Shown one piece after another: positions 7,929 to 48,875 of a stretch of 64,000 nt of DNA (positions within the stretch are counted from its first letter, which is position 1; each line of letters starts with the position of its first letter). The position numbers and the translations under genes were made by a program. This DNA is from Candidatus Marinacidobacterales bacterium (lineage in GTDB: Bacteria > Acidobacteriota > Vicinamibacteria > Marinacidobacterales > DATDRI01): positions 4,672,001 to 4,736,000 of the forward strand of contig OZ245365.1 of assembly GCA_965226495.1 (NCBI GenBank). The letters run 5' to 3'. The notes beneath the pieces were generated by a model. The model worked only from the letters and a program-made list of their open reading frames with translations. It searched no databases and was not told where the DNA came from.

Positions 7929-10508
7929 CTATTGAACGTAACCGAGCGAGCGTAGCTGCTGAAGCTGATCGGGAGAAAGCGCGACGCCTTCCGCCGCTTG
8001 GAACTGCGTAGCCAGCGCCTGATGGGCCTCCCACTGAGCTTGGAGTCGCTTGCGGTATTCCTCGACGAGCTCGGGGTAGCGTTCGTTGACGTTGTGCAAA
8101 GCGTAGGGGTCGGAGAACAAATCGTACAGCAGCAGCCGCGGGGTCTCGGCAAAATAAGGATGAGTGGCACCCCAGCGTCCTCCCGCCGGGATCGCATGAC
8201 GGCCGAGGTCGGGATCGGCGCCTTCCTTCACGGGACTGATCTCTAAAGACGCGCCCCAGCGGCCATCGATCATCTCGATGTTGCCGAACCATTCACCGGT
8301 TTCTGCATCGACGCGGAACTCGTCGAAGATGACGGGACGTTGTTCCCACCCATCGTCCCCAGCAGGTCCAGCAGATCCGGCAGGCCCACGCGTCTCCATC
8401 AGCAGGGGCGCCAGCGATTGCCCTTGCAAAACCTCCGGCTGTGGCAAGCCCACCAAATCAAGCACGGTGGGCAGCACGTCGATCATCGATACCGGCTCCG
8501 CAAAGCGTTGACCGCCCGCGATGCGGCCAGGCCAAATGAAGATGAGCGGGATGCGGCTATTGAATGCCCCGAGGAGTGCTCCTTCCCAATCGGGGGGCTC
8601 CTCTTCGAGCATGCCTCTTCCGAAGCGGGAGTAGCTTCCGGCCGGATGGCCGTGGTCAGCGGCAATGATGAGCAGGGTCCGCTCCCATTCGCCGATCGCC
8701 TTGAGTCGCTCGACCAGGCGCCCGAGCTGATATTCCTGGTGCGCCATCGTCTCATCGTAAAGGCCACGGTGGCGCTCGTAAAAGGTTTGGCGAGGAATGC
8801 TCTCGCGTTCCAGAGCATGGCGATACGCGGCGAAGATGCTGGTCAGCTCCAATTGCTTGCTGAACATCTTCCCCTCCCACTGGGAGAGCTCGGCACTTTG
8901 CTCCGGCGAGACGTACAAACCAGCGAAGGGAGGCACCGGGCGATAGGGCCAGTGGACGTCGGTCGTTTGAAAGTGCGCCCAGTACGGCTCGGCGCCGTAC
9001 TGTTCGCGAAACCGCCAGAAGTCTTCGTGAAGCTCTTTCGAGGATTCCGAATGGTGACCGCCCAAGTGCTCGACAAGAACGTCCATCCCGCGCTCTATGC
9101 CGATAAGCCGGCCGGCGTTGGGGTTGGTGGTAAAAGAGGACGTCAAGTATCCGGCGTCGTGCAAGTGCTCCGCCATGGTCTTGGCGCTCAGCGGCACTGG
9201 TGAAGAGTAGACGCCGCGGCTCAGCCCACCCAGGACGCTGTGCTGGAGCGATGTCATGAACGATGCGGTCGACGGTTGCGTCCAGGTCGAGTTGCTGTAG
9301 GCGCGCTCGAACACCGCTCCTTCCTCGGCCAACCGCTCCATGTTCGGCGTGGTGCGGCGGTTGTATCCGTAAACACTCATGAAGTCCGCACCGGCCCCAT
9401 CGATCACATAGAAGATGACGTTCGGCTTGTCGGATCGGTGATCGCCGCCCAGCGTCGGGGCGCCCCAAAGAGCTACCGTCCCTTCGCGCTCCGCGTCGGC
9501 TTCGAGAGAAAGTGTTATCGGTTTTCCTTCATAGGCTTCGTAGCTCGAAAGATCGACGCTGACTGGTCTCCAACCAGCGGGGTCGCCGTAGGAGTCTTCG
9601 AAAACGACCTCGGCCTCTTCTCCATCGACTTCCGCGGTGATCTTGAAATCGACCGGAATGTCAGACCGCACGACTCCCAGCTCGAGATCTAATCGACCCC
9701 CTGGTGGTACGTTCACGTGATAGCTCATGCGGGCCGGTGTGTGCGCAAAGAGTGTCCGTCGCACCGAGTTCTCCCGCGCCACGCTCTTGACACCGTAGGG
9801 GTCTCGGAAGGCGCTGCCCGAAGGGACGGCACTTATTGAAACGATCTCGAAGCTCGCTTCTTCGAGCGCGCCGACGGCAATGCCCAAATGCTTCCAGGGC
9901 TTGTCTTTGCCCACGGATTCGGGGCTCATGGCTTCGGGGCGCGTCACAGGGAAGACATATGTCTGCAACTCCCCGTCACTGAATACCGGTGTCCTCGACC
10001 ATGCCAGCCAAGTGGGAAACCATGTCGGAGGGCATGACGCCACCTTCAAACTCGAAGCCGATCACCATGCCCCAAACCGGATCCGACGTGCGGGCGCGCA
10101 GCACGATCGCTTCCCAATCATCGAAATCCCAATCGTCGAGCTCGGTGTAGAGTCCCCCGATGACCAGCATGCCGGCTCGACCCAACTCGAGGAGGGATAG
10201 GCTCAAAGCGCCGTCTATACTCGCGAGCTCCGTCGAGTTGCGTTTCCCGACCGGCCCGGAATCGACAATGGCCTCCATTCTGGCCGCGGCTCGTCGAACT
10301 TCCACTCGACTTCTCGGAGAGCCTCGGTGGCAGGCCCGGCACTCTCGATCTCCGCCGCCTCGAGATGCTGCTCGAGATGGAGGGCGGTATCCGAATCGAG
10401 AGGGCCAGGCGGGCGTCCGCATCCACCACTGCCCCAACAGGCAAAGACCGGCAATAGGCCGGACAGGATCAACGGCGCAACGTACCGGTGGTAGCGCTTC
10501 AATTTCAT
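7929..10508 (-). pseudogene. Sulfatase-like (alkaline phosphatase superfamily) lipoprotein with two apparent frameshifts (~10250, ~10010); catalytic part 7929-10049 intact
   Basis: Lipobox leader in ORF 10215-10508, middle part in ORF 9976-10437, catalytic domain KPNVIFYVID..RRTTPNM..ADHG..LRSLGYVQ in ORF 7929-10049. Confidence 0.72.
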
Positions 10509-10520
10509 CAGCGGCGGGAG

Positions 10521-11885
10521 CTAACCGTCGGTCTCTTGTGCGATCTTATACTGCTCGAGCTTCTTGTAGAGATTGCTTCGGGGGGTTCCGATGACTTGAG
10601 CGGTTTGGGAGATGTTCCAGTCGTTTCCCCTGAGCTTCGCAACGAGAAACGCTCTCTCGCTTACTTCTTTGAACTCCTTCAGGGTTCCGACGCCGAGGTG
10701 GTCAACCTGAACGAGCTCGCTGGGGTAACGGATGCTCTCGGGAAGATCCTCGACTCCGATGACATCGCTGTCGGACATAATGAGCATGCGCTCTACCGTG
10801 TTGCGCAGCTCGCGGATGTTTCCTTTCCAAGAGTACTTCTGGAGTCTCTCCAACGCCTCGGTGGAGAACTTTTTCTTCCGTAGGTGATCCTCTGTCGAGA
10901 ACACCTCGATGAAATGTGCCACCAAAGCAGGGATGTCTTCGCCCCGCTCTCGCAGGGAAGACATCTCGATGGGGATGACCGACAGGCGGAAAAAAAGATC
11001 TTCGCGGAAGTTTCCGGCGGCGATCTCATCCTCCAGTCTCTTGTTGGTGGCGGCGATCACTCGCACATCGACTTTGTTCGTCGCCGCGGAGCCCACGCGC
11101 TCGACTTCGCCTTCCTGCAACACTCGAAGCACCTTGGCTTGCGTGCGGGCGCTCATGTCCCCAATTTCGTCGAGGAAGATCGTGCCGCGATGGGCCTGCT
11201 CGAATTTCCCTACCTGTTTGGTGGTGGCTCCGGTGAACGATCCCTTCTCATGCCCAAAGAGCTCGCTCTCGATGAGGTCTTCGGGAATGGCGGCGCAGTT
11301 GACTTGAACGAAGGGGGCGCGGGCTCGATTACTGTTGCCGTGGATCGCGCGCGCCACCAGCTCTTTTCCGGTCCCCGACTCGCCGGTGATGAGAACGGTC
11401 GCATTGGTGGGTGCCGAGCGGCGAATGGCCTCTCCGACTTTGTCCATGGCTTTGCTGGAACCGACCATCCGGTAACGGCGCTCGAAACGAAGCCGTAACC
11501 GGCCGACTTCTTCCTCCAGCTCCTTCCGCTCGGCGGCATTTCGCACCGCGAGCAGCACCCGCTCGGTCTCCAAAGGCTTTTCGATGAAATCGAACGCCCC
11601 GAGCCTGGTGGCTTGGACTGCCGTCTCGACGTTTCCGTGCCCGCTTATAATGATGACCTGGGTCGAAGGTGACTTCTCTTTGAGCTGCTCCAGGACTTCC
11701 AGCCCGTCGATCCCAGGCATCTTGATATCGAGGAAGATCAGATCGGGAGGATCTTGTTCGACGGCCTTGATTGCTTCGACCCCGGACGGAGCCTCGGTGA
11801 CCTCGAAGCCCTCGTACTCGAGGGTCATGCGCATCGTTTTTCGGATGGGCTCCTCGTCGTCTACAACGAGTATTCGGGCCTTCAC
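10521..11885 (-). CDS. NtrC/NtrX-family response regulator (REC-AAA+-HTH)
   Basis: LVVDDE, DIKMP, GESGTGKE, ESELFGHEKGSFTGA, FLDEIG, Fis-type HTH. Confidence 0.93.
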   Translation of the reverse strand: MKARILVVDDEEPIRKTMRMTLEYEGFEVTEAPSGVEAIKAVEQDPPDLIFLDIKMPGIDGLEVLEQLKEKSPSTQVIIISGHGNVETAVQATRLGAFDFIEKPLETERVLLAVRNAAERKELEEEVGRLRLRFERRYRMVGSSKAMDKVGEAIRRSAPTNATVLITGESGTGKELVARAIHGNSNRARAPFVQVNCAAIPEDLIESELFGHEKGSFTGATTKQVGKFEQAHRGTIFLDEIGDMSARTQAKVLRVLQEGEVERVGSAATNKVDVRVIAATNKRLEDEIAAGNFREDLFFRLSVIPIEMSSLRERGEDIPALVAHFIEVFSTEDHLRKKKFSTEALERLQKYSWKGNIRELRNTVERMLIMSDSDVIGVEDLPESIRYPSELVQVDHLGVGTLKEFKEVSERAFLVAKLRGNDWNISQTAQVIGTPRSNLYKKLEQYKIAQETDG

Positions 11886-37837: not shown

Positions 37838-40135
37838 CTAGCGACGCCTTCTCTTCTTTCCCCGCGGGCCGCGCGGAGGTCTCGAGCTCGGCGCCTTCAC
37901 GTGGCTAGATCGAGAACTGCCGCGCACAGGTTTCGGCCTCAATCCTTCAATGGCTAGATCGATCTTTCGCTTCTCCTGATCGACCCGCACGACTTGCACC
38001 TCTAATTGATCACCAAGGCGGTACATTTTGCCCGTGGACTCGCCTCGCAGCGTATGGGTTTTTTCGTTGAATCGGTAATAGTCATCGGCCAGCGTGCTGA
38101 TATGAACCAACCCTTCGACGAAAAACTCTTCCAGCTCGACGAAGAGACCGAAGTTCAACACCCCGGTGACATAACCGACGAAAACATCCCCCAACTTGTC
38201 GGCCATGAAGCGTACCTTTTTCCATTCCACGAGCTCGCGCCCGGCATTCTCCGCCCTCCGCTCGGTACGCGAGGAGTGCTCGGCGATCTCGGGAAGACTC
38301 CCCTCTCTCTTCGCTTGCGTGGCGGCAGAGGGTACGCCCTTGGTTCGCACCTCGCGAAGCAGACGATGGATCACCAGGTCGGGATAACGTCGAATGGGCG
38401 ACGTGAAGTGCGTGTAGATGGGGGCCGCCAAGGCGTAGTGGCCCGTGTTCTCCATGGCATAGCGAGCTTTCTTCATCGTTCTCAGCATCAAGAAAGAAAT
38501 GAGACGCTCCTCCGGCTTTCCATCGATTCTCTTGAGCAGCGCCTGAAAACTCTTGGGCTTCAATGCCTCGGAGCTCGCCCGCAACCGATAGCCCAATCCG
38601 GAGATGAAATTCTCGAAATCCTCAACTCTATCTTCCTCGGGTTTGTCGTGGACCCGGTACAAGCTCGGCACATCGAGTCCCGACAGGTGCCCCGCCACAA
38701 CATCGTTCGCCAGCAACATGAACTCTTCAATGATGTGGTGGGCGACGTTTCGCTCCGCGGCCACGATCCCGGTGACCAACCCCTCTACGTCGAGGAGGAC
38801 CAACGGCTCCGGGAGATCGAAATCGATGGAGCCTCGCTTCTCGCGACGAGCACGAAGGACCTGATAGAGGCCAAGCATCCGTTCGATGAGAGGAACGAGC
38901 TTGTTGTAGCGCCGTGTGACCTCGGGATCTCGGTCGACCAAGATCTGCCGTACCTCGGTGTATGTCATACGGGCGGCGCTCCGAATCACACCGTCATAGA
39001 GCTCGTAATTCTCGACGCGGCCCTTGGGACTCACCTCGATACGCACCGACTGCACCAGACGGTCCACGCCGGGATTGAGACTGCAGATCCCGTTCGAGAG
39101 CCGCTCCGGGAGCATGGGCACGGCGCGCTCGGGGAAGTAAACGGAGGTGCCGCGCTCGAAGGCTTCTCGGTCGAGGGGGCTCTTCTCGACAACGTAGTGA
39201 GCCACGTCGGCGATATGGACTCCCAAGAGAAAATTCCCGTTGTCGAGAATCTCAACTTGCACCGCATCGTCGAAGTCACGGGCCGTCTCGCCGTCGATGG
39301 TGACGATGTCTTCGTTTCGGAAATCGGTACGGCCCACGATCGCTTGCTCGGGCACCTCGGTTGGAGTGTTCTTTGCTTCTCGCAGAACGTCTTCGGGAAA
39401 AGAATCAGGGATTTGGTACTTGGCGATAATGACCTGCACGTCGACACCGGGAGCATTCGCGGGCCCCAGAACCTCGGTCACTTTTCCCAAAGGCGCACGA
39501 AAGGGACTCGGATAACGAACGATCTCGACGACCACCATTTCCCCTGGTTGAGCTCCCGCCTCGTCTCCGTGGGTCACGAACACTTCGTAATGAAAGTTCG
39601 GGTCGAACGGAACGACGCGGGCCCCCTCGTGGTCTTTTTCGAAGCGGCCCACGACACGCGTCGACGCCCGTTCGAGCACCTCGACGATGCGACCCTCCGG
39701 CTTCCCGAAACGCCCCTGTCGCTCGATATGGACCAACACACGATCGCCGTGCAACGCATCAGCAAGCGCGGCGCCGGCGACATAAATGTCCGGCTCCGGC
39801 TTTTTACTCTTGGTCTTTGCAGTCTTTTCGGACGGATCGGGCGGGCGGTCCGGGCGCACGAAACCGAAGCCGCCCGGCTTGCACTCAAGCCGTCCCGCCA
39901 CCAAATCCATTTTCTCGGGCAGTCCAAGACGATCGGCGCGCGTTCGCGCCAACTTTCCGTCGGCCAGCATTTGACCAAGAACGCGTTTGGCGGCGAGGCG
40001 AGCGTCTCCCTTGACCCGGAGCATCTTGAGAATGTCTTTTTCGGTGGTGGGACGGCCGAGCCGGGTCAGAACCTCCAGGACCCGGGTTCGAATACCGTGA
40101 TCGGTCTTTTCTGTAGAGGGGGGCACCGGCGGCAT
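37838..40135 (-). CDS. rnr: Ribonuclease R
   Basis: TIDGETARDFDDAV, HIADV, THFTSPIRRYPDL, S1 domain, basic tail. Confidence 0.96.
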   Translation of the reverse strand: MPPVPPSTEKTDHGIRTRVLEVLTRLGRPTTEKDILKMLRVKGDARLAAKRVLGQMLADGKLARTRADRLGLPEKMDLVAGRLECKPGGFGFVRPDRPPDPSEKTAKTKSKKPEPDIYVAGAALADALHGDRVLVHIERQGRFGKPEGRIVEVLERASTRVVGRFEKDHEGARVVPFDPNFHYEVFVTHGDEAGAQPGEMVVVEIVRYPSPFRAPLGKVTEVLGPANAPGVDVQVIIAKYQIPDSFPEDVLREAKNTPTEVPEQAIVGRTDFRNEDIVTIDGETARDFDDAVQVEILDNGNFLLGVHIADVAHYVVEKSPLDREAFERGTSVYFPERAVPMLPERLSNGICSLNPGVDRLVQSVRIEVSPKGRVENYELYDGVIRSAARMTYTEVRQILVDRDPEVTRRYNKLVPLIERMLGLYQVLRARREKRGSIDFDLPEPLVLLDVEGLVTGIVAAERNVAHHIIEEFMLLANDVVAGHLSGLDVPSLYRVHDKPEEDRVEDFENFISGLGYRLRASSEALKPKSFQALLKRIDGKPEERLISFLMLRTMKKARYAMENTGHYALAAPIYTHFTSPIRRYPDLVIHRLLREVRTKGVPSAATQAKREGSLPEIAEHSSRTERRAENAGRELVEWKKVRFMADKLGDVFVGYVTGVLNFGLFVELEEFFVEGLVHISTLADDYYRFNEKTHTLRGESTGKMYRLGDQLEVQVVRVDQEKRKIDLAIEGLRPKPVRGSSRSSHVKAPSSRPPRGPRGKKRRRR

Positions 40136-40180
40136 CTTAGCCCTGTTCTAATTCGAAATCGACTCGTATTTACGATCACA

Positions 40181-40209
40181 TTGACAGGGCCAGACCGCCC
40201 TCCTATCAT
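40181..40209 (+). promoter_or_regulatory. Sigma70 promoter of tRNA-Leu(CAG)
   Basis: TTGACA-17 nt-TATCAT. Confidence 0.75.
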
Positions 40210-40236
40210 GGGCCTTCAAATATTGCCTTCCCATGT

Positions 40237-40322
40237 GCCGAAGTGGCGGAACGGCAGACGCGCTGCGTTCAGGGCGCAGTTCTCTTCGGGGAGTGGGGGT
40301 TCGAATCCCCCCTTCGGCACCA
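40237..40322 (+). tRNA. tRNA-Leu(CAG)
   Basis: Acceptor GCCGAAG/CTTCGGC, anticodon arm CTGCG-TTCAGGG-CGCAG, long variable arm, GGTTCGAATCC, ACCA end. Confidence 0.96.
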
Positions 40323-40361
40323 AAGGATTCTATATGTAACCGAGTCAGTTATTTACGACGA

Positions 40362-41615
40362 ATGGGGACACCCATGACCAACGGACAGCCAACTGGAGTG
40401 CGACCTTTGCCAGATCTGGCGGGCCGGATCGCTTTCCTCGGAACTTGCGACAATGCTGCTCACGTCCTCGATCGGGCGGGCGTCCCGGTCGTTAACATCC
40501 TCGGCCTGAAGTTAGAAGTGGTGTCGTGTGTTTATCCTCTCCCTCTCAACAAATTCTCGTTCTGCGTCGCGTTTCGCGACGCTGCTTCGCTTCCCAAACT
40601 GCGTATCGCGCTCAAAGACAGGAACGACGTGCAGCTCCTAGGCTTCGATGTCAGCTTTGAATCGAAGGACAGGGCGACAGTCACACCAGGAGACGTGCAC
40701 CTCCGCGGCTACCTACCAGTCAGTTCGTCCTGGATGGTCGCGATCTTGCGCCCGGAGGAACTCAAGAAGAACGTACTGTCATTGATGTCGGAACCGGGCG
40801 TTTTGCGAGTGACTGCGATTTCGGAAGGTTTCAGTGAAGAAATTGGATCGCTGAACTTCTCTTACGAGAAGGCCCTACCCTTAACGCAAGAGCGCATTGC
40901 TGCAATAAGGAGTCAGCCTCAAGCGAGCCGTTTCATTCGGTTCGTAATGAAGTGCCAAACTTGCGGAGATGGCATCACGCCTTACGCAGCTCTTGAGAGA
41001 AACTCTAAGATGGAGAGCGAAGGGCACCATTGGTACAGCGACGTGCCGGACTTCTTCACGTGTAAGTGCGGAAAGAAAATCGACTTGAAATACGTAAGGG
41101 AGAGCCTTCATGGGCTGCTGGGCCAGCCGACGGGTATCTTCGAGGAAGAAGCCTCCTTTGGGCAGCTATACACTGTTGAATCGCTGGCCGCTACGGTTCA
41201 GCGGTTTCAGGTCTTCTTGGACGAATCACCAGAGGAACCGGAGGTTCAACAGTTCTTGGGAGCGAATCCAATCTTCTGGACTGTTCTCGCCCCCGAGCTC
41301 ATTCTTGAGAAAGCGCCAGTTCTTCACAAATACCAGACGGATTTCGCGATCCTGAGCAAGACGGGCACGCTTTACCTTGTTGAGATCGAAAAGCCAGAAA
41401 AGAAACTGCTAAAGAAAGACGGCGCGCCCACACAGCTCTTTCACCATCCTTTCCATCAGGTCACTGACTGGCTACGTGAGTTCGACAAGAACAGGCCCGC
41501 GTGCATCGATGGAATGAAACTGAAGCCCGAAAGCGTCAGCGCAGTCAAGGGCGTCGTCATCATCGGCAGAGATAAGGGTTACGACCCGGATGCCCTTGTC
41601 ATTCATCATTATTGA
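40362..41615 (+). pseudogene. Shedu (SduA/DUF4263)-type nuclease with unusual N-terminal region, C-terminally truncated by an IS
   Basis: EPEVQQFLGANP, TDF, LVEIEKP, QVTDW, VVIIGR; the last codons (VIHHY*) are read from the IS end starting at 41597; start 40362 or 40374. Confidence 0.78.
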
Positions 41616-42922
41616 TCCGGACGGGACTGCAGGCCCACGCGGCCCGGCGACGAACGACGAAAGCGGGGTCGACGCGCGCGAGCAGTTGGCGGAATCACGC
41701 GATCGGCGGGTTCAGGCGGTTGAGAACGCAATTGTCGAGGGCTCCAGCCAAGCGACGCGCGGCGACGAAAACCGTCTTAGGCAGCCTCACGCCATTCGTA
41801 CCGGTGGTGAAGCCCACGCACCCGCGGCAGTGCAACGACCTTCGCCGTGGGTGACGGTCTCGGCGTGATTGCTCTTGCGCTCGGGGTGTCTTTGCTGAGC
41901 CCCAAGTGGCAGCGATCCTCGTGATAGTAGCTGATGTAAGAACGAACGAGTCGGACGAGATGGCGCTCGCCGAGGACGACGACGTGCTCAAGGAGCTCTC
42001 GACGGCAGCTGCCGATCCAGCGCTCGGCCGTCCCGTTCTGCCAAGGGCTGCGAAAAGAAATGCGAACAGGCTTCGTGCCCATCGCCTTGATGAACTCGAC
42101 CACGGCGAAGCTGAATATAGAGTCGCGGTCAAAGATCAGGTATCTCGGCGCGCTGTCGTAGGGAAACGCCTCGCGTAATTGCTGAATCACCCACGCCGCC
42201 GTCGGGTGGAACGTGGCGCGAAAGTGCAAGATATGGCGACGGCCGTGCTCGATGACGAACAAGCCGTACAGGAGCCGCAGCGACGCCGTCGGCACTGTGA
42301 ACAAATCCATCGCGGCGATTTCGTCCTTGTGGTTACGCAAGAAAGCGACCCAGCGCTTTATCTGATCGGGTTCGGCAGGCCGGCGCGGCAGGTAACGCGA
42401 CACCGTCATCTCCGAGACCAAGAATCCGAGCTTCGTGAGTTCCGCGTGGATACGCGGTGCACCCCAGCCGTCTTGCGCCATCATCCGGATGAGCCGACGA
42501 ATCTCGGCGTCGACGCGAGGCCGCCCCGGATGACGTCGCTGCGAGATCTTTGCCCAGTAACGTCGGAATCGATCCCGATTCCACCGCGCGACCGTGTCGG
42601 CGTTAACGATGAGTAAGCGGCTCGCCCACCCGGGCCACGATTTGCGAAGTGCCACCCAGAATGCTCGGTCCGTGTCCTCGAGCGGTGGCCGGGGGCGCTC
42701 CTTCTTGAGCGCCGTAACTTGCTGCCGCAAGGCAAGGTTTTCAATCACGAGATCGGCTCGGCGCCGACACATCGCCCGGATCGCACGGGCGCCGAGAGAG
42801 ACGAGGAAGATGAGAGCACGGAGCATAGCCGCGCAGTTTGGCGATCTTCCTCCGTAATCTCAAGCGGCGGAACGCGCAGTAAGTCTCTGATTTCACACGC
42901 GGACCGATTTTGATGAGGCACA
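41597..42922. mobile_element. IS481-like insertion sequence (TGT...ACA ends)
   Basis: 23-bp imperfect IRs TGTCATTCATCATTATTGATCCG and (revcomp) TGTGCCTCATCAAAATCGGTCCG; no target duplication. Confidence 0.8.
41777..42826 (-). CDS. Integrase-core (rve) DDE transposase
   Basis: ENLALRQQ, PGRP, WGAPRIHAEL, AMDLF, FDRD, SPWQNGTAERW, HLGL. Confidence 0.92.
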   Translation of the reverse strand: MLRALIFLVSLGARAIRAMCRRRADLVIENLALRQQVTALKKERPRPPLEDTDRAFWVALRKSWPGWASRLLIVNADTVARWNRDRFRRYWAKISQRRHPGRPRVDAEIRRLIRMMAQDGWGAPRIHAELTKLGFLVSEMTVSRYLPRRPAEPDQIKRWVAFLRNHKDEIAAMDLFTVPTASLRLLYGLFVIEHGRRHILHFRATFHPTAAWVIQQLREAFPYDSAPRYLIFDRDSIFSFAVVEFIKAMGTKPVRISFRSPWQNGTAERWIGSCRRELLEHVVVLGERHLVRLVRSYISYYHEDRCHLGLSKDTPSARAITPRPSPTAKVVALPRVRGLHHRYEWREAA

Positions 42923-44111
42923 ACTCAACCTCCAGGCTCTCGGCGACCGCAACAACACCGAAGCCAATGGCTCGAGCATTCGCGGCGGCGCGGGGCTCCC
43001 CGACTCTCTCGACTCAGTGCTTCCGGCCAACCGTGTCGGCGTCTGGCTTCAGGACCAAGTGCTCCTCAACCCGTCATGGACTCTGGAGCCCGGTATTCGA
43101 TTCGACTGGAGTGAGGCGAACGGACGGGGAACGGTGTCGCCGCGTTTTACCGCACTCTACCGCATCAAACCGTCGACGCTGCTGAAGGGTGCTTTCGGCC
43201 TGTACACCCAGAGCCCGGGGTATGAGAAGTTGATCCAATCGGACTTCTTCATTGACCTCACCGACGCCAGCGCCCTCGACCTCGCGCACCAGCGATCGAC
43301 GCACTTTATCGCGGGGCTCGAGCGCGAGGTGACTGCGGGCGTGACCGCTCGCGTCGAGGGTTTTTACAAAATGTACGGCGACCTCATCGTCGGCCGGCTC
43401 GAAACCAATGAGGAACGGCTCCAGCGCGTCTCTCGGTACGACTTCCCCCCCGATCTCCGGGACAGCATTCCGACGGCGCCGATCATCACCAGCAATCCCT
43501 CGAACGGCGCGCGCGGAAACGCGTACGGTTTCGACTTCTATCTCTCAAAGACCGCGACCACTCGCGAGTCGCGGCTCGCCGGCTGGCTCTCCTACACGTG
43601 GACTCGTGCCGAACGCGACGCGTATTCGCGCCTGTATCCATTCGACTACGACCGCCGTCACTCGCTGAACCTTGTCGCAAGTTACCAATTGAGCCGCAAG
43701 TGGACGCTGGCGTTGACCGGTCGTGTAGCGTCCGGGTTCCCCTACACGCCGCCTCTAGGTGTGCGGGTGGCCGCGATCGAGGATCCGGACGATCCTGAAC
43801 GGTTGATCCCAGAAACCGATATCAATGGTTTGCTCGTTTACGAAGCGGACCTCGGTGATACGCAAAACCTCAATACGGGGCGGCTTCCGTTCTACGCGCG
43901 CTTCGACGTGCGAGCGAGTTGGCGGCCCGGAGGCGACACCGGCAACTTCGAGCTCTTCTTCGAAGTGATCAACATGCTGAACCGCGATAACGCGGTGTCC
44001 CTCGAACCACGACTCGAGTTCGATCCGACCTCGGACGTTCCCAGCATCAACGAAACCCCTTCGGAGGGCTTTCCGCTTCTGCCGTCGTTCGGCATCCGCT
44101 GGCGATTCTAG
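42923..44111 (+). pseudogene. C-terminal part of a TonB-dependent receptor; 5' end removed at the IS boundary
   Basis: Frame is open back to the IS end; beta-barrel motifs SPRF, GWLSYTW, YDRRHSLN, RFDVR, INMLNR, terminal FGIRWRF. Confidence 0.85.
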
Positions 44112-44117
44112 ACGCCG

Positions 44118-45824
44118 TCACGCCGATAGCTCGTGGCCGGTTCCGGCTCTGCGCGGAATCCGAATGTCTTCGACGAGCTGCTGCACCTCAGGAGGGGGAG
44201 GGGGAGTGAAGCGAGCCACGCTTCCTGCGACCACGAAGTTGATGACCATTCCAAGGGTTCCAATCCCTTCCGGCGACACACCGAACCACCAGTGGTCCAC
44301 GTTGTTGAGCTCGGGGTAGAGGAACTTGAAGTAAATGATATAGCCAAGCGTGAAACCGATCCCGGCAATCATGCCGGACACCGCCCCATAATGGTTCATG
44401 CGCTTCGTGAAGATGCCGAGCAGAATAGCCGGAAAGAACGACGCGGCAGCCAACCCAAAGGCAAGAGCAACCACCTGGGCCACAAAGCCGGGCGGGTTGA
44501 TGCCGAAGTAACCGGCGACGACCACCGCGAGTCCGGCGGCGATGCGGGCCGCACGGAGCTCACCTTTCTCGGTGATCGAAGGGCGAATGCATTTTTTCAG
44601 CAGGTCGTGGGCGACCGAGCTCGAGATCACGAGCAACAGCCCCGCTGCCGTCGAAAGCGCGGCGGCGAGCCCCCCCGCCGCCACCAGACCCACGACCCAG
44701 TTCGGTAGCTGGGCAATTTCGGGATTGGCGAGCACCATGATGTCTCGGTCGATCACCAGCTCGTTAGGAACGGACGATTGAGGCCCGGTGTATTGAATGA
44801 GACCATCGCCGTTTTTGTCCTCGAAGCGAATGAGGCCGGTCGCTTCCCAGTTGCGAAACCATTCGGGCGCATCGGCATAAGGTTGATTCGACAGAGTGGT
44901 CAGTAGGTTGGTGCGGGCGAACGCCGCCACCGCTGGCGCCGTAGTGTAGAGAAACGCAATAAACAGGAGCGCCCATCCAGCCGAGCTGCGGGCTTGCCGG
45001 ACCAGGGGCACGGTGTAAAAGCGTACGATCACGTGAGGCAATCCCGCGGTGCCCACCATGAGCGCGGCGGTGATGAAGAAAACGTCGAGTGTCTCCTTCC
45101 GTCCCGCGGTATAGACTCCGAAACCCAACTCCTGGGTGAGACCGTCGAGTCTGTCGAGCAGGAAAACACCGGAGCCGTCCGCCATTGTCGAGCCGAAACC
45201 AAGCTGAGGGATGACGGTGCCGGTCATCAAAATGGAAATAAAGATGGCCGGGACCAGGTAGGCGAAGATGAGTACGCAATACTGAGCGACCTGGGTATAG
45301 GTGATTCCTTTCATCCCGCCCAACACTGCGTACGAGAACACGATCATCATCCCGATCAAGACACCGATGTTTATGTCCACTCCGAGGAAACGAGAGAAAA
45401 CGATCCCAACGCCCCGCATCTGGCCGGCCACGTAAGTAAAGGAGATGAACAGAGCGCAGACGACCGCGACGACCCTAGCCGTTTGCGAGTAGTAACGATC
45501 TCCAACGAAGTCGGGCACGGTGTACTTACCGAACTTCCTTAGGTAGGGGGCGAGCAAAAGCGCTAATAGAACGTAGCCGCCGGTCCATCCCATGAGGTAC
45601 ACCGAACCGTCACGGCCCATGAACGCAATGAGACCCGCCATGGAGATGAATGAGGCGGCGCTCATCCAGTCAGCGGCGGTGGCCATTCCATTGAGAACCG
45701 GGGGCACTTGGGCCGCGGCCACGTAGAACTCGCCCGTCGAACGGGCACGCGACCAGATGGCGACGCCGATGTAGATGGCGAACGACAGGGCCACCAAGAC
45801 AAACGTCCACGCCTGGACGGTCAT
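44118..45824 (-). CDS. Cation/acetate symporter (ActP-like SSS family)
   Basis: ATAADWMSAASF, GDRY, GTAGLPHVIVRF, AAALSTAAGLL. Confidence 0.92.
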   Translation of the reverse strand: MTVQAWTFVLVALSFAIYIGVAIWSRARSTGEFYVAAAQVPPVLNGMATAADWMSAASFISMAGLIAFMGRDGSVYLMGWTGGYVLLALLLAPYLRKFGKYTVPDFVGDRYYSQTARVVAVVCALFISFTYVAGQMRGVGIVFSRFLGVDINIGVLIGMMIVFSYAVLGGMKGITYTQVAQYCVLIFAYLVPAIFISILMTGTVIPQLGFGSTMADGSGVFLLDRLDGLTQELGFGVYTAGRKETLDVFFITAALMVGTAGLPHVIVRFYTVPLVRQARSSAGWALLFIAFLYTTAPAVAAFARTNLLTTLSNQPYADAPEWFRNWEATGLIRFEDKNGDGLIQYTGPQSSVPNELVIDRDIMVLANPEIAQLPNWVVGLVAAGGLAAALSTAAGLLLVISSSVAHDLLKKCIRPSITEKGELRAARIAAGLAVVVAGYFGINPPGFVAQVVALAFGLAAASFFPAILLGIFTKRMNHYGAVSGMIAGIGFTLGYIIYFKFLYPELNNVDHWWFGVSPEGIGTLGMVINFVVAGSVARFTPPPPPEVQQLVEDIRIPRRAGTGHELSA

Positions 45825-46090
45825 CGGTCTTCCCTTTCATGCATGTTGAACTTGTGATCCAGGCGGTTCATGAGCCGGACGTAAACGAAGATGAGAACCA
45901 CGAAGACGTAAATCGATCCCTGTTGGGCAAACCAAAAACCCAACTGGAATCCCCCGACCCGGATTCGATTGAGCGGCTCGACGAGAAGGATCCCGAACCC
46001 GTAGGACACCGTAAACCAGATCGCCAACAACACGAACACGTAACGGAGGTTGCTTCGCCAGTACTTGGTTTTGTCGCTCAGCTCGGTCAT
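45821..46090 (-). CDS. DUF4212 membrane partner of the ActP-like symporter
   Basis: YWRSNL, IWFTVSYG, GFQLGFWFAQQGSI. Confidence 0.9.
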   Translation of the reverse strand: MTELSDKTKYWRSNLRYVFVLLAIWFTVSYGFGILLVEPLNRIRVGGFQLGFWFAQQGSIYVFVVLIFVYVRLMNRLDHKFNMHEREDR

Positions 46091-46349
46091 CTTTTCCTCG
46101 TTAGCCCTCAACTTCCTTTCAATCCGGAACGCGGCCATAAAAACTTACTCGCGCCCCAAGCGCGTCGAAACATAGCAGATCCTCGCAATCGTGTCGCCCC
46201 CTCCGACCCGAAGTGTTCGCCTTGCCCGGAAAGAGTGGGAGTGGAGATGCGGACACATCATCTCTTGATATCAAATATATATGATGTATTATCTCTATTA
46301 TATGACTATCAGAGATGAACCGTTCACATCCATCTCGCTACTGGCCTTA

Positions 46350-46673
46350 GTCGGCGTGCGTCGAACGGGCCAAGAGGGAGCGCCCGCCGCCGCGAGGGAT
46401 GCGTTGCTTCATCTGGAGAGCCGATCGGACGCGATCCTCGTCCACTTCGACGTCGACGTGATGGACTTCCCCGCCGCCGACGTGCCACACGCTAACGGGC
46501 TCGACCTCGAATCGACATTTGCAGCGCTCCGGGTCTTCGTCACAGCTCCGACGTGCCTTGGCGTCGTGGTGACGGAGTTCAACCCGGAGCAGGATCCGGA
46601 CGGCTCCCATGCCGAGCGCCTGGTCGACAGCCTTGTAGAAGCCCTCGGCGCACGAAAGGAACAAGCGGCATGA
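46350..46673 (+). pseudogene. Arginase/ureohydrolase C-terminal fragment
   Basis: LVHFDVDVMD...GL...VTEFNPEQDPDG; no N-terminal metal motifs and no credible start. Confidence 0.72.
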
Positions 46674-47164
46674 AGACCGCCGCCGTGCCGTCGCTGGACC
46701 CGGTCGACCTGCAGATCCTGGCTGTGCTCCAGAAGAACGCCCGGACCCCGAACGCAGAGATCGGCCGGCGCGTTGGGCTCGTCGCCTCGGCCATCTTCCA
46801 GCGCCTGCGCAAGTTGGAGAAACTGGGTGTCATCCAGGGACACGAAACTCGGATCGACCCGCGTGCGGTCGGCCTGGACCTGGCCGCTTTCATCTTCGTG
46901 AAGGCGGACGAGCGGGTCGGGAGTCTCGAAACGGCTCTCCTCCTCGCCAAGCTGCCCGAGGTGCAGGAGCTGCACCATGTCGCCGGCGAAGATTGCTACC
47001 TTGTTAAGGTCCGGGTGGCGGACGCGGCGGAGCTAGGGCGACTCCTTCGGGAAAAAGTCGGCGTCATCGGGTCGGTGCAGTCGACTCGGACTACGATCGT
47101 GCTCGAGACGATCAAGGAAACCGGCACCCTGCCACTCCGCCCGGCAGAACCGCAAGAAGCTTAG
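46670..47164 (+). CDS. Lrp/AsnC family transcriptional regulator
   Basis: LDPVDLQILAVLQKNAR, RLRKLEKLGVI, VAGEDCYLVKV; ATGA overlap at 46670. Confidence 0.93.
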   Translation: MKTAAVPSLDPVDLQILAVLQKNARTPNAEIGRRVGLVASAIFQRLRKLEKLGVIQGHETRIDPRAVGLDLAAFIFVKADERVGSLETALLLAKLPEVQELHHVAGEDCYLVKVRVADAAELGRLLREKVGVIGSVQSTRTTIVLETIKETGTLPLRPAEPQEA

Positions 47165-47179
47165 GAGCTAGGAGGCGGC

Positions 47180-47806
47180 GTGGACTGGACGGTGTGGACG
47201 ATGTTCGCCCTCACGGAAGTGACCTTGTCCGCGACTCCCGGTGTCGCGGTCATGTTCGTTGACTCGCAAGGGCTGCGCTCTCGATCGACCGACCCGCTTT
47301 GGGCAGCGGCGGGCATCCTCGCGGCCAACGCTCTGTATTTCGCGGCCTCGGGAACAGGGGTCGGAACGTTGTTGTTCGCCTCCAGCCCCCTCTTCACGGG
47401 CATCAAGTGGGCCGGTGCCGCGTACCTGCTTTACCTAGGAGCGGGGACTCTGCTTCGAACACCGCCGAAAACGGGAGGCGCAGGGACCGGCGGCGACGTC
47501 AACCTCGGACGCCGGGCCCTTTTCCTCAGGGGCTTCGTCGTGCAGCTCTCGAATCCCAAGGCGCTGCTTTTCTTCGTGGCCATCTTGCCCCAATTCATCG
47601 ATCGGAGCCGGCCGATCGTCTTTCAGATCCTCGTCCTCGGAGTCACCTCGATCGTGCTGGAGTTCGGTGTGCTCGCCGCTTACGCCACCGCCGCATGCCG
47701 AACCGGGCGGATCGCGATGCAGCCACGCTTCGCGACGTTAACAAGGCGGCTCAGTGGCGCCCTGCTCGTGGGTGCGGCCCTCGGCTTGGCGCGCCTCGAG
47801 CGCTAG
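47180..47806 (+). CDS. LysE/RhtB family exporter
   Basis: ATPG, KWAGAAYLLYLG, GFVVQLSNPKALLFF..LPQF. Confidence 0.9.
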   Translation: MDWTVWTMFALTEVTLSATPGVAVMFVDSQGLRSRSTDPLWAAAGILAANALYFAASGTGVGTLLFASSPLFTGIKWAGAAYLLYLGAGTLLRTPPKTGGAGTGGDVNLGRRALFLRGFVVQLSNPKALLFFVAILPQFIDRSRPIVFQILVLGVTSIVLEFGVLAAYATAACRTGRIAMQPRFATLTRRLSGALLVGAALGLARLER

Positions 47807-47842
47807 GTGGGAGTCCAAGACAAAGGTCGCGACAGCTCCGAT

Positions 47843-48156
47843 CTACCAGCGGCTCATGGAGCCAAGCTCATGGACATCCCCGATGCCGGCTCGCCGTAGG
47901 ATCTCGGCCGCCTTGTGACACCGCGCTCCCGCACTGCAGCAAATCACCAGCGGGTGGTCGATCTGTCGTAGCTCCTCTGTCGTTTGTTCCACTTCATCCA
48001 CCGGGACGTTGAGAGGGCAGCGGGCAGATGGTCGCCAGCAAACTCTTGGGGCGAGCGAAGTCCTCGCTTATTCCGTAGATGTTCAACTCACGGGTGGAAG
48101 CGCCACGTTAAGAAGATCGCGACCGCCACGGCGAGGAGAATGACTTTGCGCCGCAA
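47843..48156 (-). pseudogene. Degraded membrane-anchored rhodanese-domain protein (absent from the ORF track)
   Basis: VILLAVAVAIFLTWRF, in-frame TGA, RSPQEFAGDHLPAAL, frameshift, NVPVDE...PLVICCSAGARCHKAAEILRRAG..VHELGSMSRW*. Confidence 0.75.
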
Positions 48157-48397
48157 ACGAAGATGCCTTTCACGCGGACCCGCCCCATCGTAAGGAAAAA
48201 AGCAGTTCGAGTAAAGTTAACGGGTGACGGACCAGCAACTCGGCCCGGAACGAGTTGTGCCCACCCAGAAGGCTGCGCAGTCTGCTATCCTGAAGGCCTC
48301 CCCAGTCCAATTGAAATAGTAGTCCCGCCGTAACGAAGACGGCCGGCGAGGAAACGCAGCGCGTCCATTGACATACCACGCGCCAGGAGGTTCTTAG

Positions 48398-48617
48398 ATG
48401 GACGAAAAGAACAAGATCGGGTTCACCGTCGGGTTTTTCATCCTCATCGCCATAGGGCTCTATGCCGTTTTGGATCACGGCCACCGAGGGCTATACCGCC
48501 TTCGGGGCACGAAGTGGCCTCAAGCAACTCGTCGCCGACTACTGGGGCCGCAATTTGGGGATAGGCATGATGGTTCTCGGGGCACTGGCGTTGGTCGGCC
48601 TGCACACCGCCGAGTGA
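48398..48617 (+). pseudogene. Small two-TM membrane protein with a probable frameshift near 48468
   Basis: AGGAGG RBS; TM1 in one frame, GLKQLVADYWGRNLGIGMMVLGALALVGL in the +1 frame. Confidence 0.45.
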
Positions 48618-48679
48618 CAGATTAGTAGTTGCTGACCCGCAGAATCCGGTCCCTGGCTCGACTCAGCGAGCAAGACCCG

Positions 48680-48708
48680 TTGACGCGGCTCTTCCCCCTC
48701 GCTAGAAT
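48680..48708 (+). promoter_or_regulatory. Sigma70 promoter of tRNA-Leu(TAG) and the tig operon
   Basis: TTGACG-17 nt-TAGAAT. Confidence 0.72.
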
Positions 48709-48791: not shown

Positions 48792-48875
48792 GCGAAAGTG
48801 GCGGAACGGCAGACGCGCTGGACTTAGGATCCAGTGGGGCAACCCGTGGGGGTTCGAATCCCCCCTTTCGCACCA
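48792..48875 (+). tRNA. tRNA-Leu(TAG)
   Basis: Acceptor GCGAAAG/CTTTCGC, anticodon arm CTGGA-CTTAGGA-TCCAG, variable arm, T-loop, ACCA end. Confidence 0.96.

Follow-up and report, generated by a model that had tools for sequence, protein, structure and literature searches.

A Shedu nuclease gene broken by an insertion sequence in a Candidatus Marinacidobacterales genome, with an N-terminal module distantly related to DUF6941

A stretch of 64,000 nucleotides from a Candidatus Marinacidobacterales bacterium (contig OZ245365.1, positions 4,672,001 to 4,736,000; hereafter the window, meaning the whole stretch) contains the remains of a Shedu (SduA) gene, cut off at its 3' end by an insertion sequence (IS). 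We read its open reading frame (ORF), with a probability of about 0.85, as the 5' part (1236 nt) of a gene for a type I, single-gene Shedu nuclease directed against phage, which was acquired horizontally and was cut by the IS and whose copy here is most likely non-functional. The open frame runs from 40233 to 41615 on the forward strand, and an internal ATG at 40362 opens a product of 417 aa (P0001), in which a two-part N-terminal module and a linker precede an incomplete nuclease domain. What the window holds is a fragment of a Shedu family member and not a whole gene; the gene and its parts are the following.

40362..41615, forward strand: truncated Shedu (SduA) gene, 412 native codons followed by 5 codons and a stop codon from the insertion sequence
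40419..40871, forward strand: immunoglobulin (Ig)-like beta-sandwich, residues ~20-170, distantly DUF6941-like, with a predicted homodimer interface (structure model, hhalign, ESM Atlas)
40881..41111, forward strand: conserved helix (PLT.ERIAAIRS.P) and four-cysteine zinc ribbon (alignments, model)
41124..41231, forward strand: flexible stretch and helical linker from the N-terminal module to the nuclease (full-length homolog model)
41232..41597, forward strand: PD-(D/E)xK nuclease domain (SduA_C), incomplete, with the last strand and the C-terminal helix absent (Pfam profile, alignment with EcSduA 8ps4, family conservation)

The nuclease domain is recognized by the SduA_C profile of Pfam (PF14082), which matches residues 291-405 of P0001 at E = 1.9e-12 and 48.1 bits (gathering cut-off 27) and is covered over positions 3-128 of its 159. 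Nine SduA models of PADLOC match the same part of the protein, and SduA_C is found in 18 of 18 aligned homologs; a scan of P0001 and of an intact homolog, P0003, with NCBIfam gave no match. Together with an alignment to EcSduA and a fold match, these results bear out a sequence-only reading of the window, made earlier from its letters and their translations, which had placed a DUF4263/SduA nuclease at the C-terminus: all the motifs that it quoted (E..VQQFL, TDF, VEIEKP, Q..DW, and IIGR) are there, in columns that are invariant or almost so in the family alignments.

Catalytic residues have been described for two solved Shedu enzymes: E226/Q230, D269, E283/K285 and Q314 in EcSduA, according to the text of Loeff et al. 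(10.1101/2023.08.10.552762), and E204, D249, E264/K266 and Q295 in the Bacillus cereus enzyme (BcSduA), according to the text of Gu et al. (PMC10441436). The positions assigned from these two papers in the window copy are E292/Q296 (motif I), D327 (motif II), E341-x-E343-K344 (motif III), and Q366 (motif IV). Conservation of these positions is high in a family alignment of 105 rows: the motif I Glu is invariant, the motif II Asp and the first Glu of motif III are kept in 105 of 105, the motif I partner Gln in 98 of 105, and the motif IV Gln in 104 of 105. The position of the motif III Lys is occupied by Glu in 104 of the 105 homologs, followed by K or R in 96. Since E-x-E is also found in 6 of 15 other Shedu nuclease domains sampled (a sample of the phylum plus G002, a genome of the same genus), it is a common variant of Shedu motif III, and the same count ruled it out as a hallmark of the subtype; the six domains belong to other genomes (loci L036, L027, L029, L037, L032, and L012). 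None of the solved structures returned by the searches is an E-x-E Shedu. Outside the Shedu family, BamHI is an active E-x-E enzyme.

Among solved structures, the best match in both sequence and fold is EcSduA (8ps4/8ps5), the sole solved sequence relative (E = 9.4e-4), which aligns through D, ExK/ExE, GRD, and TYDDL. The structure model of intact P0003 (predicted local distance difference test score, pLDDT, 92.5) has 8ps5, 8ti9, 8ps4, and 8ti8 as its top Foldseek matches (E 3.2e-7 to 3e-4), the best values against EcSduA and BcSduA being 3.2e-7 to 1.2e-6, and superposes on these two enzymes with a template-modelling (TM) score by target of up to 0.72 (root-mean-square deviation 3.8, 189 columns); the latter three values describe the nuclease core fold shared with BcSduA (8ti8/8ti9, Type 1A). 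EcSduA, as described in the text of Loeff et al., shares the type I layout of N-terminal domain, helical linker, and C-terminal DUF4263 nuclease, and its motifs I, II, and IV and its C-terminal TYDDL align with those of the family; it differs in motif III (E283-x-K285, against E-x-E-[K/R] here) and in its N-terminal domain, an unrelated DNA-end clamp without a zinc ribbon. BcSduA differs in its N-terminal sPC4/Whirly fold and likewise in motif III (E264/K266), and according to the text of Gu et al. (PMC10441436) its N-terminal domains dimerise and hold the nuclease off.

Homology to the relatives stops at residue 412 (...DKGYDPDAL), at nt 41597, and the relatives extend 33 aa further; the IS encodes the VIHHY with which P0001 ends and the stop codon after it. 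The sequence-only reading had estimated the C-terminal loss at ~30-40 aa including a TYDDL-like motif, and the alignment now sets it at 33 aa, which carry LRKLK...TYDDL and the final helix, the residues T-Y-D-D-L being conserved one by one in 100, 92, 100, 102, and 83 of the 105 homologs. In terms of the SduA_C profile the lost segment is positions 129-159, which the intact homologs have and the window copy lacks together with T-Y-D-D-L, and in the P0003 model it comprises the end of helix 394-402, strand 408-411, and helix 413-429. It could be argued that this strand and helix are dispensable and that the truncated gene still yields a working or partly working nuclease, as all four catalytic motifs and the entire N-terminal module are intact and an in-frame stop arrives after just 5 codons of IS sequence. 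We consider this quite improbable in view of the structural elements lost and of the near-invariance of T-Y-D-D-L, which is conserved in EcSduA too; moreover, a PD-(D/E)xK domain that loses a core strand usually unfolds. Because a core strand and the terminal helix are gone, the window copy is most likely dead, and the earlier judgement of a probably inactive protein is upheld, as a probable one, by the alignment.

The cause of the truncation, which the sequence-only reading did not mention, is the IS itself, whose left end, TGT at 41597, lies inside codon 412. The features at and beyond the break are as follows.

41597..42922, reverse strand: insertion sequence of 1326 bp, with imperfect terminal inverted repeats starting TGT and ends common to five other genomic copies
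41777..42826, reverse strand: transposase of 349 aa, rve-type DDE (Pfam rve_3)
43017..44111, forward strand: 3' fragment of a TonB-dependent receptor gene (Pfam TonB_dep_Rec_b-barrel, only profile positions 169-435 of 436)

Elsewhere in the genome (6.34 Mb) there are five diverged copies of the element, with 81-90% identity in the transposase gene, and comparison at their flanks shows the match with the window beginning at 41596/41597 on the left and ending near 42922 on the right. In NCBIfam the transposase scores 83.6 bits for IS481 (cut-off 224) and 79.5 bits for IS3 (cut-off 160), and by these scores the element is best called an rve-type IS nearest IS481/IS3, far below both family cut-offs. 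Its flanks are unlike (GATGCCCT on the left, ACTCAACC on the right), and their comparison revealed no target-site duplication. The receptor fragment adjoins the right side of the element, and its relative in G005 lies in an 836-aa open frame. Since there is no target duplication and the right flank is a broken receptor gene, this is no simple insertion: the sequence from the 3' end of Shedu up to mid-receptor has been lost or moved. Neither tblastn, queried with three homologs, nor a motif scan of all six frames found the missing 3' end in the genome; a low-identity piece of 33 aa could escape both. The same IS marks the break of a second gene, that of the receptor, from which at least the N-terminal half is absent.

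The N-terminal module consists of two parts. A model of residues 1-262 (pLDDT 84.2, predicted TM score 0.78) has an eight-stranded sandwich at 23-168, in agreement with the beta-rich region described from sequence, followed by a helix at 176-184 and short hairpins at 191-241; beyond it, the homolog model has residues 244-253 at low confidence and then the linker helices 257-294. The four cysteines of the CQTC...CKC pattern (C198, C201, C234, and C236) are conserved in 105, 105, 105, and 104 of the 105 homologs, a near-invariance that supports the zinc ribbon already proposed. Foldseek of the N-terminal model against the pdb returned nothing at E ≤ 1e-3, and a wide VIA-align search returned the C-terminal domains of AglB/STT3 (Z 8.8 and 8.3), macroglobulin domains (Z 6-6.7), and Pycsar AGS-C (Z 5.4), all rows of both searches concerning the sandwich and not the zinc-ribbon part; the full P0003 model matched UNC119/PDE6D-type sandwiches at E about 3e-4 to 3e-3. 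The similarity of the N-terminal model to these folds is only generic, of the Ig-like or beta-sandwich kind, and no function was drawn from it.

A distant relationship links the sandwich to DUF6941 (PF22091). The window protein has no Pfam match to this family at E ≤ 1, and the matches of its homologs (8 of 112 and 1 of 18) are weak, only P0069 exceeding the cut-off (30.0 against 27 bits). With hhalign, the 105-sequence family aligns to DUF6941, represented by 17 sequences collected from genomes of the phylum, at 91.1% (E 1e-6, 107 columns), and at 17.7% when only 9 family sequences are used; in a structure search of the ESM Atlas, the nearest two clusters are both DUF6941 (TM 0.72 and 0.67). 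Because the window protein is without a match and the homologs are mostly below the cut-off, the sandwich is a distant relative of DUF6941 rather than a member by Pfam's rule, and the resemblance proposed earlier is accordingly real and distant. The two share the beta-sandwich and an N-terminal pattern, L-C-D ... G-K ... L-x-G-x-F ... L-P; they differ in that DUF6941 is a stand-alone protein of about 125-150 aa. Of 401 genomes of the phylum, 83 encode such a protein (82 of 400 once G192, an unpublished genome among the 83, is set aside), and none was found in the genome of the window (G000). In genomes of the phylum DUF6941 is usually single-copy (L038-L067), and one DUF6941 gene adjoins ORFs that resemble uroporphyrinogen decarboxylase and HslV, both named by eye from their translations.

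The sandwich is also predicted to homodimerise. A two-copy model of P0003 scored 0.62 (runs 0.63, 0.62, and 0.57) against 0.00 for the best control, with runs sharing at least 84% of contacts and a partner pLDDT of at least 77, and thereby supports pairing. The copies are predicted to meet symmetrically through sandwich residues 4-60, 105-114, and 144-153, on strands that bear the conserved A-F-L-G and N-I-L-G-L motifs; this interface is unlike the nuclease and linker ones described for solved Shedu.

How widely this architecture occurs was surveyed with an N-terminal profile of 238 positions, built from the window and eight loci of other phyla and searched over 1.84 billion cluster representatives. 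It has 497 matches at E ≤ 1e-3, 405 at E ≤ 1e-10, and 257 at E ≤ 1e-30, and among the 150 matches listed the module is always N-terminal. A Pfam scan of 112 of these 150 found SduA_C in 91, in each of which (91 of 91) the N-terminal module precedes it, while the 21 without SduA_C are all of 361 aa or less, consistent with their being fragments. Because 91 of 112 carry the nuclease and the rest are short, the module and the nuclease travel together. A first protein search had returned 30 relatives of 29-46% identity, most of them aligned over ~94% of the query and most 424-440 aa long. Hosts of the family in genomes include Firmicutes, Verrucomicrobia, Acidobacteria, candidate phyla, and an Asgard archaeon. 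One homolog, from Peregrinibacteria (L006), lies in two open frames (9986-10270 and 10322-11296), which may reflect a break, a sequencing error, or another genetic code.

Whether this family represents a new kind of Shedu can be judged against the survey of Gu et al. 2023 (PMC10441436), which covers 7,687 Shedu proteins with 79 N-terminal domain clusters. Its supplementary table lists 17 proteins as '4263N42+4263N43+DUF4263', with N-lengths mostly of 266-287 and C-lengths mostly of 12-15, from hosts that include Lokiarchaeota, Woesearchaeota, Kaiserbacteria, Planctomycetes, and Proteobacteria, and three further proteins as '4263N43+DUF4263'; in Supplemental Table S3, N43 is assigned to Type 1G ('DNA binding') and N42 to Type 1X ('Unclassified'), and 'zinc finger' is one of the domains that the main text gives for Type 1G. 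The family resembles these rows in having two N-terminal domains before DUF4263, in its N- and C-lengths (SduA_C starts at about 258-305, with 12-14 residues after it, as in 272-414 of 427, 281-423 of 436, and 276-416 of 430), and in its mix of taxa, Asgard and DPANN archaea, candidate phyla, and Planctomycetes being common to both. In addition, two rows agree in species label and in lengths with individual family members: for Kaiserbacteria (271/13) the counterpart is P0031, of 427 aa, whose NCBI name is 'DUF4263 domain-containing protein [Candidatus Kaiserbacteria bacterium]', and for Proteobacteria bacterium (281/13) it is P0054, of 436 aa, with SduA_C at 281-423. The window copy itself departs from the rows in ending at residue 412.

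On these grounds of domain count, lengths, taxa, and two species and length matches, which make a strong but indirect case, the subtype is very probably the N42+N43 architecture of Gu et al., and the claim of the sequence-only reading that the N-terminus may form an undescribed Shedu sensor class is probably wrong. For that claim to hold, the N42+N43 rows would have to describe another family of similar lengths. The link to the rows is through species label and lengths rather than accession; 'DUF6941', 'ribbon', and 'sandwich' occur nowhere in the text and two supplementary files of Gu et al., figures apart; and no paper in the literature searched mentions DUF6941 or PF22091. Weighed against the agreement in architecture, lengths, and taxa, and against the placing of N43 in the type for which a zinc finger is listed, an undescribed class seems unlikely. 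The window gene is thus probably a broken copy of a catalogued Shedu subtype, for which no DUF6941 link, dimer model, or experiment was found in the text and tables of Gu et al., Supplemental Figure S8 apart; a search of the literature from 2024 on for Shedu with a zinc ribbon, zinc finger, or beta-sandwich found nothing on the subtype among the papers listed.

Several observations point to a foreign origin of the gene. The protein is present in 1 of 41 related genomes, namely that of the window; what G002 carries is a Shedu nuclease domain unrelated to it. Its G+C content is 0.542 against a genome mean of 0.591 (standard deviation 0.022), which is the 1.8th percentile of genome windows of equal size, and its G+C at third codon positions is 0.641 against 0.71-0.76 in neighbouring genes; the gene had been described as looking less GC-rich than its neighbours, and these values agree. 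This rarity and low G+C point to horizontal acquisition. The ATG lies 39 nt past a tRNA gene (40 nt by the earlier count, which had rightly put the gene close behind it).

40237..40322, forward strand: tRNA-Leu(CAG) (ARAGORN), left edge of the segment that differs among related genomes

The spot after this tRNA is variable among relatives. G002 has RNase R and tRNA-Leu(CAG), then 6.1 kb of unrelated DNA, and then the sodium:solute symporter gene found at 44118-45824 in the window; G003 likewise has tRNA-Leu(CAG) after RNase R, and 2.6 kb that contain a PIN gene separate this tRNA from tRNA-Leu(TAG). The 6.1-kb stretch of G002 carries a MerR-type regulator, a CopZ-type zinc-binding domain, and small ORFs, a content that ruled out a defence island shared at this place. 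No integrase turned up in the window, nor any att-like repetition of the 3' end of the tRNA; the proposed tRNA-Leu integration site is supported in part, by the segment after the tRNA that differs among relatives. Nor is tRNA adjacency a trait of the family, as no tRNA was found at 10 related loci (up to 10 kb on each side, three of them ending at a contig end). In the window, tRNA-Leu(CAG) (40237-40322) and tRNA-Leu(TAG) (48792-48875) bracket the segment that varies among relatives, and the symporter/DUF4212/AsnC block (about 44118-48700) is kept in G002 and missing between the tRNAs of G003.

The neighbours of the gene in the window are core genes (SelB, RNase R, trigger factor, ClpP, ClpX, and Lon). 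The only matches of PADLOC close to it, at ClpX and Lon, are AAA/Lon cross-hits. At a distance of 17 kb from the Shedu remnant, the ORF at 58424-59296 matches methyltransferase models of PADLOC (mad2 at 4.5e-24, MTase_II at 9.2e-11). Elsewhere, 4 of the 9 full-architecture homolog loci have conflict-type neighbours, as listed below; two (L002 and L007) have other nuclease-like or unknown neighbours, and three (L003, L004, and L008) housekeeping ones.

L001: TOTE primase
L005: ResIII/DEAD helicase
L006: Eco57I/MmeI-type methylase and PD-(D/E)xK nuclease
L010: CAP12/Pycsar TIR, zeta toxin, and PIN

No neighbour is conserved across the nine loci, and the layout is that of type I: one gene, in which the nuclease is preceded by an N-terminal domain that varies. 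As an alternative, the family might serve housekeeping or a mobile element, sharing the DUF4263 fold and having no part in immunity; this would also suit the three loci amid housekeeping genes and the core genes around the window copy, and the immune role of the family is a predicted one. A non-immune role agrees poorly with the patchy occurrence of the protein (1 of 41 relatives) and of Shedu domains of whatever kind (14 of 301 genomes of the phylum), with the spread of the family over very distant phyla and archaea, and with the four loci with conflict-type neighbours; the lack of a conserved partner gene is, moreover, what would be expected of a single-gene Shedu. We regard a non-immune family as highly improbable and retain the anti-phage Shedu assignment.

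In intact relatives (about 425-440 aa), a DUF6941-like sandwich with predicted self-pairing is followed by a helix and zinc ribbon, a helical linker, and the DUF4263 nuclease. By analogy with the two solved Shedu enzymes, a mechanism can be proposed for them: the nuclease domains would assemble an oligomer, restrained by its pairs of N-terminal modules until these detect a sign of infection. In this subtype the sign would most likely be DNA, bound by the part that holds the zinc ribbon, and the activated enzyme would then nick or cut the invading DNA. For the window copy, in which the IS lies within codon 412, we envisage that the last 33 residues and all the DNA once downstream of the gene went by an IS-associated deletion or rearrangement. 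The sensing mode and oligomer state of the subtype, as well as the loss of activity of this copy, are what we infer from such comparison.

A number of points weigh against the interpretation offered here. Motif III has Glu where both solved Shedu enzymes carry the catalytic Lys; no defence island surrounds the gene in the window by Pfam and PADLOC; and since the ORF upstream of the break is otherwise undamaged and, in the alignment with homologs, retains every invariant residue, the break may be recent or the fragment may still be made. The calibration behind the dimer prediction, in which the pass mark was met by 20 of 30 solved same-chain pairs and 1 of 23 single chains, gives counts that are only rough for a model made with a custom alignment. 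Finally, the putative sensing of DNA by the zinc ribbon, the likeliest nucleic-acid contact of the protein, derives from the filing of N43 as 'DNA binding' in Supplemental Table S3 of Gu et al.

Apart from the Shedu gene, a 777-aa open frame (38006-40339) runs antisense to the RNase R gene (37838-40135, reverse strand) and is longer than the real gene; it is most likely an artefact of high G+C.

As a more speculative and, as it stands, doubtful hypothesis, the sandwich and zinc ribbon may together form a self-pairing sensor whose way of working is neither that of the DNA-end clamp in EcSduA nor that of the BcSduA Whirly domains; the widespread stand-alone DUF6941 proteins might then be its free-living relatives. 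If true, this would give a first functional handle on DUF6941 and on a Shedu subtype that spans Asgard archaea to Acidobacteria. What is added here to a catalogued subtype is modest, namely the kinship with DUF6941 and the predicted dimer: N42, unclassified there, is newly annotated as a distant DUF6941-like beta-sandwich, predicted to self-pair via its most conserved strands and always followed by the four-cysteine zinc ribbon. With 257 cluster representatives at E ≤ 1e-30, the subtype is far larger in metagenomes than the 2023 list of 17 proteins, and its intact relatives are reasonable candidates for a first biochemical study. For this genome, the finding is of a broken defence gene at a variable spot beside a tRNA, a small record of immunity gained and lost.

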